Source of the DNA: a virus
Lineage: Duplodnaviria; Heunggongvirae; Uroviricota; Caudoviricetes
Direction: 5' to 3' (one strand)
IMG/VR virus record: IMGVR_UViG_2526164662_000025
DNA: 13,122 nucleotides
Part shown: positions 8,144 through 12,701 of the stretch, piece after piece
Layout: each line of letters opens with the position of its first letter
How positions within the stretch are numbered: position 1 is the stretch's first letter
Notes under the pieces: model-generated
What the model saw: only the letters and a program-made list of their open reading frames with translations
Told to the model about the DNA's origin: nothing
Databases searched by the model: none
Position numbers and translations under genes: made by a program

Positions 8144-9172
8144 TTATTTCACCTGTACCACCACAAACTCATCCGGGTCCGGCAACACCATCAGCGGCGC
8201 GGACTGCGTCATGGTAAATTCACGGGCGGGATCCCCTACCGTCAGCCAGTGTTTCGGATAACGGGAAGAGGCCACCACACCTTCGGACAACGCCTGCGCA
8301 TCCTGAATGGCACCATAGCAACGAATGCCCTCTGCTGCCGTATTCCCCAGGACCAGCGAGCCCTCAGGCAGATAACGTTTTTCGGTACCGTCCTCTGCCA
8401 CATAAGACGTTTTTGCCACCACAATGGCCAGATCGCCGTAATACCCTTTGAAGGACACCACCGCGCCCAGGTCTTTCACCGCTGTTTCGAGTTGCGAATT
8501 AGAGCCGCGACGGGTATCCAGTTTTTCGCGGAACAATTTAAAGCCATTCAGCAGACGCCAGACGGTACCGTCCATAATGGCAATATTCACAAGACCGCTG
8601 GCCTGGTCGCAGTAGAGGTCAAGATCATGTGTAGGATCGAACGTGTCACGATCCTGTTTTGACCACTCCTTACCACTACCCTGAGTGATGTTATTCTTCG
8701 TCGACCTGCCAAAATCGACCTCAATTTTCTCGAACTGGTCTCCTTCCATCGTGTATTTGCCATACAGCACGGCATTCACCGCCTGCATTTCTTCCACCCG
8801 GACAATGGCGTGCTCTTCCTGTTTGAGGTTATCAGTGATGATACGCAGACGACGGTAGGCCGGGTCGTTCAGCTGAGCCGGATCTTCACCGGGAAGACGC
8901 TCAACCGCCTGCTGGTAATTAAATTCGTGTTTCGGCTTGACGTAGCCCGGACGTAACACGCGGGTTTCACCACCACGATGACGCAGCACTTTTCCTTCAA
9001 CAACCGGGGAAACATAGGCCGCCACCGGCGTTTTTCCGGTAATTTTGTCCAGCATCACCTCTTCGGTATGGAAATTCACCGTACGGCGGAAAAACAGCTC
9101 CAGAAACAGCGCACGAAATTTCACTTTTTGTTCGGTATAACCGAGTAACTGGCGGGTCGTAAACAATCCCAT
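8144..9172 (-). CDS. E: Major capsid protein E (lambda gpE-like), 342 aa
   Basis: MGLFTTRQLLGYTEQKVKFRALFLELFFRR...PGYVKPKHEFNYQ...VEEMQAVNAVLYGKYTMEGD...KLDTRRGSNSQLETAVKDLG...DPAREFTMTQSAPLMVLPDPDEFVVVQVK aligns along its whole length with lambda gpE (341 aa). RBS gAAAGGAActgatttATG. Confidence 0.95.
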   Translation of the reverse strand: MGLFTTRQLLGYTEQKVKFRALFLELFFRRTVNFHTEEVMLDKITGKTPVAAYVSPVVEGKVLRHRGGETRVLRPGYVKPKHEFNYQQAVERLPGEDPAQLNDPAYRRLRIITDNLKQEEHAIVRVEEMQAVNAVLYGKYTMEGDQFEKIEVDFGRSTKNNITQGSGKEWSKQDRDTFDPTHDLDLYCDQASGLVNIAIMDGTVWRLLNGFKLFREKLDTRRGSNSQLETAVKDLGAVVSFKGYYGDLAIVVAKTSYVAEDGTEKRYLPEGSLVLGNTAAEGIRCYGAIQDAQALSEGVVASSRYPKHWLTVGDPAREFTMTQSAPLMVLPDPDEFVVVQVK

Positions 9173-9229: not shown

Positions 9230-9577
9230 TTACGGCAGCGCCGCGTGACTCAGGGCACTGCCGGCAAAGGCGTTGGCCTTTTTGTGTTCATCCACACTTT
9301 CAGGCCAGCGGATTGCCTCCGTCGCAAAGGTCCCCGACTTGTAATAGGTCAGCGCCGTCTCTGTGCCTTCAAGCGGCAGTACCAGTATGCCAACCGCACT
9401 ACCGGCTTTCTGTCCGTCCCAGACCACCAGTTTCCCGGTGGCCTCATCCAGCATCAGGGGCGTCAGTGCCGGTGTTGCCGAGGAAATCCCGCTGCTGCCT
9501 GTGGCGGTATGAGCCGGATCATTACCGGCAAAAATACGTACTTCCGCACGCTGTTCAGTGATAGTTTTCGTCACCAT
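9230..9577 (-). CDS. D: Head decoration protein D (lambda gpD-like), 115 aa
   Basis: Shares motifs with lambda gpD (DPAHTAT, TPLMLD, WDG, AVGIL, YKSGTF, AFAG) and has similar length and position. Strong RBS (caacAGGAGGtttttacaatATG). Confidence 0.9.
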   Translation of the reverse strand: MVTKTITEQRAEVRIFAGNDPAHTATGSSGISSATPALTPLMLDEATGKLVVWDGQKAGSAVGILVLPLEGTETALTYYKSGTFATEAIRWPESVDEHKKANAFAGSALSHAALP

Positions 9578-9613: not shown

Positions 9614-10216
9614 TCATGGCATGGCCATGAGCATTTTCACGTCCGCATCACCGTCTGCTGACGTCTGTGGCACGCCACCCTGTACCGCTGCCGGTGAATG
9701 GTTCGCCATGATGCGTTCAAACATGGCGGTTGTGGATGCAGAGACCGGTTCTGCCTTACCTGATCCCGCAGCCAGCACAGCCCGGGCGCTCTCCACAGTC
9801 ATTCCCGGGCAGGCAGCCAGCTGTTCAGCCTGCGCCTCAGCCCCTTTTGCCTCATCCAGTGCCATGATCTGATCACGGAGTGAGGGTCCGGCATCCGCCT
9901 GCGGTGAAGCAGCCAGGATCGGGCGGGCTTTTTCCACCGTCATCTCCGGCATCGCCGCCAGCGTTGCCGCCAGTTGTTCACGACCTTTCGCTTCTTCACA
10001 CGCCATAATGCGATCGGCTTCACTCTGCGCGGATGCCACCGGCTGCTGTGGTGCCGCCGCGGCCAGAATCGCCCGGGCCTGTTCAACGCTCATGCCCTGT
10101 TGTCCTGCCAGCATCGTGGCAAGCTGTTCACGTCCTTTCGCTTCCTGGCATGTCAGGATCCCCATCACTCGCTGGTTCTCCTGCGCGGCGGCTTCCGTTG
10201 CAGTTAATTGCGGCAT
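9614..10216 (-). CDS. Nu3: Candidate nested in-frame scaffold protein (Nu3-like), translated from an internal start within C, about 201 aa
   Basis: Internal ATG (Met302 of C, at 10214..10216) is preceded by a strong SD: minus strand reads gtcAGAGGAGGcactATG. In lambda, Nu3 is known to be made from an in-frame internal start within C. Sequence-context evidence only. Confidence 0.5.
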   Translation of the reverse strand: MPQLTATEAAAQENQRVMGILTCQEAKGREQLATMLAGQQGMSVEQARAILAAAAPQQPVASAQSEADRIMACEEAKGREQLAATLAAMPEMTVEKARPILAASPQADAGPSLRDQIMALDEAKGAEAQAEQLAACPGMTVESARAVLAAGSGKAEPVSASTTAMFERIMANHSPAAVQGGVPQTSADGDADVKMLMAMP

Positions 10217-11119
10217 AGTGCCTCCTCTGACATTACTGTTCAGCGCCGTGGCCATCACACTGATGGCATCCGACGCATTGATTAATTCATCCGCCAGCCC
10301 GGCCTCAATGCCGGACTGACCTTCAAAAACGGCGGCCTCTGTTCCCGTGACGGCATCAACAGACAGACCGGTATACATCGCTACTTTTTCAGCAAACATC
10401 CGGCGCGCCGCATCAATGCGCTGTTGCATGTCCTGGCGAACCTCTGCCGGCAACGCTTCAAACTGATTGCCATCCACCTTGTGCGCCCCTGAGTAAATCA
10501 GCGTGATATCAACACCGGCCTGCGCCAGATGACCGGCATAGCTGACATGGCTCATCATCACGCCAATGGAGCCGATACGGGATGTCTGGGTAACCAGCCG
10601 TCGGGAGCAGGCCGACGCCAGCAGCATGGCTGCAGAGCAGGCCGTGTCATTGCACAGTGCCCAGACCGGCTTCTGCTGACGGAGGCGGTAAATCATGTCA
10701 GCGCAGTCAAACGCGCCGGCGGCCTGCCCGCCCGGACTGTCAATGTCCAGCAGTACGCCCCGCACCTGGCTATCCGCCATTGCCTGCTGAAGACAGGCGA
10801 CAATGCCGTCATAGCCTGTCATTCCGGAAAATGGCCGCATACCCCCCAGCCGGTGCACCAGCGTGCCGGTCACCGGCAGTACAGCAATACCGTTCACCAC
10901 CCGGTAAACACGGGCCGGTCGTTTACCTCCGGCCATGTACTCGTCCGTTTCAGCCAGCATTCCGGGAGCATCAAACTGTACCTGCTGTTGTGGTACCGAA
11001 AGACTTGATGCCCCCATCTCGCGCCCGAGCGCGCAAAAGAAAACCCGCGCATAGGCGGGCTCCAGAAGCAGCGGTTCATTGAATGCTGCGGCAATAATGT
11101 GTGAAAGATTACGTCTCAC
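9614..11119 (-). CDS. C: Head maturation protease / scaffold protein C (lambda gpC-like, S49 SppA/ClpP-type peptidase domain plus C-terminal repeat-rich scaffold region), 501 aa
   Basis: N-terminal region (AAFNEPLLLEPAYARVFFCAL, GIAVLPVTGTL, KPVWALCND, SRRLVTQTSRIGSIGVMMSH, ITLIYSGAHKVDGN) matches lambda gpC. It lies between portal and D and overlaps the B stop. The C-terminal third contains tandem repeats. Confidence 0.9.
   Translation of the reverse strand: MRRNLSHIIAAAFNEPLLLEPAYARVFFCALGREMGASSLSVPQQQVQFDAPGMLAETDEYMAGGKRPARVYRVVNGIAVLPVTGTLVHRLGGMRPFSGMTGYDGIVACLQQAMADSQVRGVLLDIDSPGGQAAGAFDCADMIYRLRQQKPVWALCNDTACSAAMLLASACSRRLVTQTSRIGSIGVMMSHVSYAGHLAQAGVDITLIYSGAHKVDGNQFEALPAEVRQDMQQRIDAARRMFAEKVAMYTGLSVDAVTGTEAAVFEGQSGIEAGLADELINASDAISVMATALNSNVRGGTMPQLTATEAAAQENQRVMGILTCQEAKGREQLATMLAGQQGMSVEQARAILAAAAPQQPVASAQSEADRIMACEEAKGREQLAATLAAMPEMTVEKARPILAASPQADAGPSLRDQIMALDEAKGAEAQAEQLAACPGMTVESARAVLAAGSGKAEPVSASTTAMFERIMANHSPAAVQGGVPQTSADGDADVKMLMAMP
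9758..10180 (-). repeat. Three tandem, diverged ~45-aa (~140-150 bp) coding repeats in the C/Nu3 C-terminal region
   Basis: Protein repeats ENQRVMGILTCQEAKGREQLATMLAGQQGMSVEQARAILAAAAPQ / EADRIMACEEAKGREQLAATLAAMPEMTVEKARPILAASPQ / LRDQIMALDEAKGAEAQAEQLAACPGMTVESARAVLAAGSG, followed by a degenerate fourth (FERIMANHSPAAVQ). Confidence 0.65.
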
Positions 11120-12701
11120 GTGGTGTTGTCTCCTCTTCCGGCCTGCGACTCTCCGCTATCTGCTGCTCATACGCCTGCGCTATCCACACCGGACGTGAGA
11201 GTCCGGCTTTTTGTCGCTCAGCAGATTCCCTGACCTGCTGGCGGAAAATGTCCTGATAATCCTCGCCCATCAGCGCCAGCTCTTTCTCATACGTGCTCAG
11301 TCCGGCCTCAATGCGCATCACCGATTCCTGAACCTCCTTGAGCCCGTCAATGGCCATTCTTCCGGCTCCTATCCACTCTGCCCGTGACCAGGCTGATCGC
11401 GCCTGATAAAAATCAAAACGTGCCCGTGGCGGACGAATAATCCCCCGAAGAAGTGCCTCTTCCAGCCAGCAGGAAAACATCTGCGTGGCCAGCCGGGCCG
11501 CAATAAATTTTCGCCGCCCCATAAAATAGCGCCACGACTCATTGGCGGAGGCGCGGGCACTTGAGTAACTGACCTTCGAGTAATCACGGGACAACTGTTC
11601 GTAGGAAACGCCAAGACCGGCGGCGATATACCGCAGCAACGCCTGTTCAAGCGCAGAAAATCCATTGTCTGAATCCTGCGCAGTCTGTAGTTTCAGATCA
11701 TCACCAGGGAAAAGGTGCGGAATTTTGACACCGCCCAGTGTCACGTTATTCGTGTCATACCAGCTGGAGAACTTCTCCAGAATATTAATAAGCGGATTAT
11801 CTTTCTGCTCCTGTGGCGCGCCGGCGATATATTCAAAGGCCTTTTCGGTATCAAGTTCACTTTCAATCGTCGCTGCATACATGGCTTTCACAATGGCCGA
11901 CTGAAGCTGTGTTGCCTGCAGGGAATCCAGCATCTTCAGCCGTTCCATGACGCTGTAAAACTGATTAGCCCCACGGGTCTGCCCGTCCTCCACCGGCTCG
12001 AAAATATGCAGCATGGCCGGACGCCCGGTGGGTAGTTCACGCGGGATCCGTTCCCATCGTCCACTACCAGAGAACGGAAAATCATCCTCACAGATATGGT
12101 ACGCAACGGCACGGCCATATCGATCGACCTCCACCCCGGCCCGCAGAAAACGGTTCCCCATACCGTGTCCTGGCGTGTCCACCCGTTTCGGACTCACGGC
12201 TTTAAAACGCGTACGAAACAGTTGCGTGCTCTCCGTATCCCAGACCGGCTGCACAAAGATTTCGCCGTTAAACGCATGAACGCCCACACCTTCACGGATA
12301 AATTCCGTAAACGTGCGTTTCCCTTCCACGTCGATCTCGCCAGACATCCCTTCGGCGTATTCCGACCAGGCCGCCTCCACCTCATCGACAAAACTTTTTG
12401 CTGCAGTCTCCCGCATCCCCAGCCAGCGCCAGTTCGGACGGTAGCTGATCAGAAACATATGCCCGACAATATGATCCTTATGCAGTGCCACCGCATTGGC
12501 CGCTATCCCGTTATTGCGCACCAGATCATCTGCACGGGCATTGCCCAGACGCAACGCGGGCAACAGGGCCGCATCGGCACTCTGCGCCGGTGGCAACCAC
12601 TCCGCCATTTGCCCGCCAAATCCTGCACCGCCCCCGTTGTAGCTGAGGCTCTCCCGAAGCGGAACACCGTTCACATCAATCAGGACAGGCGTTCGTTTCA
12701 T
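11109..12701 (-). CDS. B: Portal protein B (lambda gpB-like), 530 aa
   Basis: Matches lambda gpB along its length as I recall it (for example GNARADDLVRNNG, FEPVEDGQTRGAN, LQSAIVKAMYAATIESELDT, LLRYIAAGLGVSYEQLSR, WIGAGRMAIDGLKEVQE). Its start overlaps the W stop as ATGA. Confidence 0.95.
   Translation of the reverse strand: MKRTPVLIDVNGVPLRESLSYNGGGAGFGGQMAEWLPPAQSADAALLPALRLGNARADDLVRNNGIAANAVALHKDHIVGHMFLISYRPNWRWLGMRETAAKSFVDEVEAAWSEYAEGMSGEIDVEGKRTFTEFIREGVGVHAFNGEIFVQPVWDTESTQLFRTRFKAVSPKRVDTPGHGMGNRFLRAGVEVDRYGRAVAYHICEDDFPFSGSGRWERIPRELPTGRPAMLHIFEPVEDGQTRGANQFYSVMERLKMLDSLQATQLQSAIVKAMYAATIESELDTEKAFEYIAGAPQEQKDNPLINILEKFSSWYDTNNVTLGGVKIPHLFPGDDLKLQTAQDSDNGFSALEQALLRYIAAGLGVSYEQLSRDYSKVSYSSARASANESWRYFMGRRKFIAARLATQMFSCWLEEALLRGIIRPPRARFDFYQARSAWSRAEWIGAGRMAIDGLKEVQESVMRIEAGLSTYEKELALMGEDYQDIFRQQVRESAERQKAGLSRPVWIAQAYEQQIAESRRPEEETTPRET

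Follow-up and report, generated by a model that had tools for sequence, protein, structure and literature searches.

Introduction

In phage lambda (gpC/gpNu3, J02459.1), in N15 (gp5/gp6) and in phi80 (gp05), an S49 protease is found with a scaffold nested in its C-terminal part. Lambda Nu3 has been reported to interact with itself, with the protease C, with the portal protein B and with the capsid protein E; it is needed for incorporation of the portal and is presumably degraded by C (PMC3224144). Genes 5 and 6 of phage 21 are homologues of lambda C and Nu3. The 1993 record of these genes (M81255.1) carries within gene 6 three repeat_region features, named 'Tri1 box', 'Tri box' and 'Tri3 box', with the note 'function unknown; putative'. 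Unlike the protein considered here, the scaffold of phage P22 has no protease fused to it, and it is recycled rather than digested. Scaffolding proteins of the P22 type are similarly helical, largely flexible and internal, are removed before packaging and make their contacts through small helical elements; the coat-binding element is at the extreme C-terminus in P22, 80alpha and phi29 (PMC11565965).

The DNA analyzed here is a stretch of 13,122 nt from a tailed phage (Caudoviricetes, IMG/VR record IMGVR_UViG_2526164662_000025), called the window below. A preliminary description, made from the letters of the window, pointed to a tandem repeat in the C-terminal part of its head protease. In this work the repeat was compared with phage 21, lambda and more distant relatives.

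Results

Gene 5 and its setting

Translation of gene 5 (Table 1) from its GTG start gives a product of 501 aa, the length stated in the preliminary description. The peptidase S49 model of Pfam (PF01343) matches gp5 at E 3.7e-35, with 121.6 bits against a cut-off of 24.9, and the SppA structures 3rst and 4kwb match the same domain at E ~5e-16. The gene is flanked by the portal gene on one side and by the decoration and major capsid genes on the other, in the same order as in the phage 21 records, and the minus strand of the window carries tail and tape-measure genes besides these. Domain and neighbours together agree with the proposal that the protein is head protease C, that is, a prohead protease of the lambda C type. 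Judged by this domain-level match, the ORF is assigned as an S49 prohead protease of the lambda C / phage 21 gp5 type. Gene 5 and the portal gene share 11 nt (window 11109-11119), where the GTG start meets the end of the portal gene; phage 21 has this overlap too, and it would fit a translational coupling within the head operon.

Table 1. Features of the gene 5/6 locus and its neighbours (positions in the window)
Feature	Position	Strand	Basis or remark
Portal ORF	11109..12701	-	ORF list
Gene 5 (lambda C homologue), S49 prohead protease with C-terminal scaffold region	9614..11119	-	ORF list, translation
Peptidase S49 domain (aa 146-293)	10241..10684	-	Pfam PF01343
Shine-Dalgarno GAGGAGG, 4 nt upstream of the gene 6 ATG (10216..10214)	10221..10227	-	Read from sequence
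Gene 6 (lambda Nu3 homologue), in-frame scaffolding protein, 200 aa (gp5 aa 302-501)	9614..10216	-	Phage 21 annotation
Unit R1, aa 312-357 (AQENQRVMGILTCQEAKGREQLATMLAGQQGMSVEQARAILAAAAP)	10049..10186	-	Contains 'Tri1 box', window 10046-10149
Unit R2, aa 365-406 (QSEADRIMACEEAKGREQLAATLAAMPEMTVEKARPILAASP)	9902..10027	-	Contains 'Tri box', window 9899-10009
Unit R3, aa 412-453 (PSLRDQIMALDEAKGAEAQAEQLAACPGMTVESARAVLAAGS)	9761..9886	-	Contains 'Tri3 box', window 9755-9868
C-terminal tail (aa 462-501), fast-evolving, no repeat unit	9617..9736	-	Lambda tail homology
Decoration ORF	9230..9577	-	ORF list
Major capsid ORF	8144..9172	-	ORF list

The closest described protein is gp5 of phage 21 (M81255.1, OL657228.1), which is 98.4% identical in amino acids across all 501 residues of window gp5; when ev017 gp5 is included, the full-length identities are 98.4-98.6%. 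Phage 21 likewise has a GTG-start gene 5, an internal start of gene 6 with its RBS and three units at unchanged positions, and its genes follow the same order (portal, gene 5/6, the shp decoration protein, major capsid protein). The two proteins differ by point changes, for example IMVCEEANG in unit 2 of M81255 against IMACEEAKG in the window. The 13-kb window matches phage 21 DNA at ~92% identity over 89% of its length, which makes it a relative, probably a prophage. Its scaffold region is 100% identical to E. coli chromosomes, e.g. AP018808.

The internal start of gene 6

The Met that starts gene 6 is aligned with Met309 of lambda C, and the equivalent Met is annotated as the start of gene 6 or of the scaffolding protein in both M81255.1 and OL657228.1. 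The putative RBS that M81255.1 gives for gene 6 corresponds to window 10223-10227. PHROG 8399, 'head scaffolding protein', matches gp6 at E 1.5e-35, in three stretches. It appears from these sequence features that the internal start can yield a Nu3-like scaffold identical to the C-terminus of the protease. The repeats had been placed in a Nu3-like C-terminal region, and the nested start annotated in the phage 21 records supports that placement.

In an old lambda record (J02459.1, 5132-5737; L003, 833-1438), Nu3 is instead a protein of 201 aa that begins at Met239, within the protease domain. At the corresponding position the window has Ile (aa 234; QQRIDAARRMF, against QSRMDATRQMF in lambda). 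Since the counterpart of lambda Met309 is kept in the window and is preceded by the strong GAGGAGG, the shorter scaffold start is the conserved one.

Three tandem units in the scaffold region

The scaffold region contains three tandem units, R1 to R3, that are repeats at the protein level. Their consensus is x-R-I-M-x(3-6)-EAKGRE-x-LA-x2-LA-x2-PGMTVE-x-A-x2-LAAAP, and the module is of ~40 residues. In BLOSUM62 local alignments the pairs of units scored 86-106, compared with 26-27 +/- 5 in shuffled sequences (z = 11-16), and none of 1000 shuffles reached the observed score. In addition, the PHROG 8399 profile, which represents the single-copy lambda Nu3, matches gp5 three times. The three tandem copies and the internal periodicity reported in the preliminary description are thus confirmed, and the span that it gave (9758-10180) agrees well with that of the units (9761-10186).

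The cores of the units are 56-62% identical in amino acids and 57-67% identical in nucleotides, and the same codon is used at only ~40-50% of the residues that are identical between units. Tandem Repeats Finder reports no DNA tandem repeat in the window because the units are too diverged as DNA; the repeat is visible only in the protein. This divergence, together with the codon differences, indicates that the copies are old and have been conserved as protein. Slippage or misassembly had been discounted earlier on account of the divergence between the copies, and correctly so, as the nucleotide identities and the recovery of the 603-bp three-unit region at full length in 1865 of 5426 complete E. 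coli genomes (about a third) make clear.

There are two matches in the window to the CII-site pattern TTGYN6TTGY, at 9964-9977 and 10198-10211 on the plus strand; both lie inside gene 6 on the strand opposite to it, and OL657228.1 lists both as CII binding sites.

The periodicity might be thought to reflect an element of the DNA itself (regulatory sites or a recombination hotspot) or else an artefact of assembly or slippage. The two pattern-based CII annotations could be cited for such an element, and so could the short direct DNA repeats of 12-17 nt that recur at a spacing of 141-156 nt. However, the CII pattern is present at the rate of chance (2 observed, 2.1 expected), the units are better kept as protein than as DNA with half of their identical residues differing in codon, and Tandem Repeats Finder is blank. 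An artefact is countered by the identical architecture of independently sequenced phages and of the 1865 complete genomes. On the strength of the codon differences, the genome count and the chance-rate pattern, this explanation was rejected; we give it almost no credence.

The C-terminal tail and other domain searches

A degenerate fourth copy had also been proposed. The residues concerned (aa 462-501) score at or below the shuffle mean against each of R1 to R3 (z -0.3 to -1.3), and they align with the tail that follows the single unit of lambda (TALDRLM ... LLNTPV). This stretch was therefore rejected as a repeat unit; it is a tail that lambda also has. The tail is only 32-38% identical to those of Gifsy-1, Trabulsiella and Providencia, compared with 54-82% for the units.

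Other searches of the region gave little. A helix-hairpin-helix motif (PF00633) fell under the Pfam gathering threshold and was rejected. NCBIfam holds no model for the scaffold part, the structure search returned no PDB entry covering the unit, and neither a sequence match nor a significant fold match to the helix-turn-helix coat-binding domain of the P22 type was obtained for the repeat region.

Comparison with lambda C

Lambda C is 439 aa long, in agreement with the length given in the preliminary description, and is 62 aa shorter than window gp5 (about 60 had been estimated). It is 54% identical to gp5 through the protease and the first unit. Alignment finds a single unit in it, at aa 357-399, as had been supposed; this unit shares the motif (ENSRIMGILNCEEAHGREEQARVLAETPGMTVKTARRILAAAP) and is followed by a C-terminal tail homologous to that of the window. 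The differences are the number of units, one against three, and a linker between the internal start and the unit that is 36 residues longer in lambda. The excess of 62 aa is accounted for by +97 aa (two units with their linkers) and +8 aa (tail), less 36 aa for the longer pre-unit linker of lambda and 7 aa in the protease part. The extra length had been ascribed to the added copies including a fourth; the two added units stand, whereas the fourth copy does not, the net figure including the longer linker of lambda. R1, which is of the type with a long first helix (VMGILxC), is orthologous to lambda's single unit. The major capsid proteins are also clearly homologous: lambda E, a T=7-type capsid protein, is 61% identical to that of the window (342 against 341 aa).

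Number of units across phages and hosts

A word-indexed search with the 200-aa scaffold returned mostly truncated fragments from E. coli and Salmonella and was poor for counting units, so an exhaustive search of 1.84 billion representative proteins was made with the unit profile (E <= 0.001). It gave 470 matches, nearly all with a single matched stretch, which typically lay near the C-terminus of proteins of 400-530 aa or in short Nu3-like ORFs. One unit each is present in lambda, phi80, N15 and Aeromonas phiARM81ld. Among species-representative genomes, three units were found in E. coli, Shigella, E. albertii, Trabulsiella and Providencia, two in Buttiauxella, and one in Vibrio, Caulobacter, several Rhizobiales, Leptospira, Bryobacter and others. 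Besides phage 21 and Gifsy-1, three units occur in prophages of three more genera of Enterobacterales, namely Shigella, Trabulsiella and Providencia. The copy number had been suspected to be variable and it is so, since one, two, three and four units occur in nature; the effect on scaffold stoichiometry or capsid assembly kinetics that was suggested for it is a putative one.

In Salmonella, the Gifsy-1 prohead protease STM2605, a homologue of lambda gpC, has three units in the same order. Its overall identity to gp5 is 63%, each of its units is closest to the window unit of the same position, and its tail and linkers have diverged from those of the window to 32-36% identity.

Four units are found in a sister lineage of E. 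coli prophages (WP_096934546.1, 538 aa; CP076704.1, locus L009, 598-2214; also L008, 1-1043), which resembles the window in protease, first unit and tail architecture and whose capsid protein is 84% identical to that of the window. This variant is full-length in 105 of the 5426 complete E. coli genomes. Its units 2-4 are mutually 79-88% identical, and its DNA does contain a tandem repeat (period 138, 3.7 copies, 78% matches). It follows that the expansion in this lineage is recent or has been homogenised.

Several unusual proteins were met in the protein collection. P0020, P0021, P0009 and P0015 are rare variants (1-4 member sequences) in which in-register deletions fuse neighbouring units and leave about two; they may be products of unequal recombination or errors of assembly. 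P0217 resembles Gifsy-1 gpC with Ala to Val, Thr to Ile or Met, and Pro to Leu or Phe changes throughout, a pattern that fits the translation of C-to-T (bisulfite-like) converted reads, and is probably an artefact of the collection. P0045 (270 aa, a single member) joins an N-terminal fragment with a DPPY motif, as in DNA methyltransferases, to a complete three-unit scaffold; it probably comes from a chimeric assembly or from a prophage that was rearranged. P0109, a distant Nu3-like protein of 198 aa, has two units; their identity is 62% to each other but only ~50% to any enterobacterial unit, which points to a duplication of the module that took place independently in another lineage.

History of the units and selection on them

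Across three-unit proteins, units of the same position are 76-96% (R1), 69-88% (R2) and 60-79% (R3) identical, while the units within one protein are 43-62% identical. The greater similarity between like positions shows that the triplication is older than the separation of the phage 21 lineage from that of Gifsy-1. The units closest to that of lambda are the R1 units, with which it shares the longer first helix MGILxC. By these comparisons R1 is the ancestral unit, to which R2 and R3 were added by an ancient duplication of the lambda-type unit.

Against the orthologues of Gifsy-1, Trabulsiella and Providencia, every unit gave pN of 0.11-0.34 and pS of 0.55-0.96, ratios that are crude because synonymous sites are saturated. 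Amino acid identity to the orthologues is 54-82% for the units and 67-80% for the protease domain, and 32-56% for the linkers and the tail. These values indicate that each unit position is under purifying selection and point to the units, not the tail, as the conserved core of the scaffold.

The question arises whether the extra units could be a neutral spacer, such that only the length or flexibility of the scaffold matters and the additional residues are equivalent to the longer low-complexity linker of lambda. The 36 additional residues ahead of lambda's unit would fit this, as would the rare in-register deletion variants with about two units, and the major capsid protein keeps its length and its homology whether the phage has one, three or four units. 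Nevertheless, the conserved motif is kept in each added unit, and the units are orthologous position by position across E. coli, Salmonella, Trabulsiella and Providencia. Selection on them is nearly as strong as on the protease domain, and divergence is much more rapid in the true linkers. Each deletion variant is represented by 1-4 member sequences, against 1865 complete genomes with the full-length three-unit region. Because of the position-specific purifying selection a mere spacer role is disfavoured, and it seems to us improbable.

Predicted structure of the scaffold

The 200-aa scaffold was modelled with AlphaFold2 from an alignment of 9 sequences (mean pLDDT 70, pTM 0.28). Each unit is predicted to contain three helices: gp6 residues 6-21, 30-38 and 44-53 in R1 (pLDDT 84-88), 66-71, 80-87 and 94-103 in R2 (pLDDT 79-83), and 113-118, 127-135 and 141-151 in R3 (pLDDT 74-79). 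The linker blocks have a mean pLDDT of about 63-64, with one stretch below 50, and the tail has 41-58. The model thus predicts small three-helix beads joined by flexible linkers, like beads on a string. The title of Medina et al. (2011) presents lambda gpNu3 as a protein that is intrinsically disordered but functional, and in view of this the predicted beads may fold only on binding.

Discussion

Very probably, the locus is a gene 5/6 pair of the phage 21 type that corresponds to lambda C/Nu3 and is carried by a phage-21-like phage or prophage of E. coli, and its units are likely to be interaction elements of the scaffold. One reading frame would give both the 501-aa S49 prohead protease and, from the internal start, the 200-aa scaffold. 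The units would then serve in self-association of the scaffold, in contacts to the portal and to the inside of the capsid shell, or in both. Since the units are present in both gp5 and gp6, one would expect the protease to assemble together with the scaffold within the procapsid, and subsequently to digest the scaffold and itself. The expectation of co-assembly follows the established C/Nu3 arrangement. With three units each chain would be multivalent or longer-reaching, where lambda has instead one unit and a linker longer by 36 residues. It is likely that the units act in this way as a multivalent module for scaffold contacts and for targeting of the protease.

Two observations temper this reading. 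First, no consequence of the copy number is visible in the capsid proteins of phages with one, three and four units, whose length is the same. Secondly, the coat-binding element of the other phages mentioned above is C-terminal, so that its counterpart here would be the tail and not the repeats; the repeated element differs from that of the P22-type scaffolds in being internal.

Alternatively, the units may have been subfunctionalised, each position binding a putative partner of its own (the portal, the capsid protein, or the protease/scaffold), in which case the triplication would have produced a new adaptor for several partners and not a gain in valency. The signatures of the positions, such as the longer VMGILxC first helix of R1 and the AMPEMT loop of R2, are kept across genera, conservation decreases in the order R1 > R2 > R3, and contacts of lambda Nu3 with B, C, E and itself have been reported (PMC3224144). 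However, lambda accomplishes all of this with one unit. Furthermore, units 2-4 of the four-unit lineage are 79-88% identical, as expected from recent duplication or gene conversion, and such a homogenised array weakens the case for distinct roles of the positions in that lineage. Separate roles for the three positions are therefore possible but doubtful, and multivalent interaction is preferred as the role of the units.

The repeat itself is not new. The translated Tri boxes of M81255.1 are the cores of R1, R2 and R3, which means that the triplication was recognised when the phage 21 head operon was first deposited. By the feature table of that record the triple repeat counts as already known. 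A literature search found no description of the repeats; the 1993 paper on the phage 21 head genes was outside its reach. The triple repeat is a correct but ordinary feature that is very common in E. coli prophages. The practical value of the finding is small, in that a first reading of the raw sequence correctly recovered a repeat annotated decades ago.

A more far-reaching reading, to which we assign a low probability, is that the array of units is an evolvable dial of valency in Nu3-type scaffolds, with three positions that have distinct putative partners. The dial would stand at one unit in most lineages, at an ancient triplet, maintained position by position, in phages of Enterobacterales and at a recent four in one E. 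coli lineage. This reading is absent from the phage 21 GenBank records, which state only 'function unknown'. If it is true, the number of protease and scaffold chains drawn into each procapsid would change with the copy number. For the study of procapsid assembly in lambda-type phages, the unit counts of one to four, the orthology of the positions, the selection on each unit and the fast evolution of the tail are of use, and the natural variants with one, three and four units and near-identical capsid proteins form a ready-made series for tests of binding by the module.
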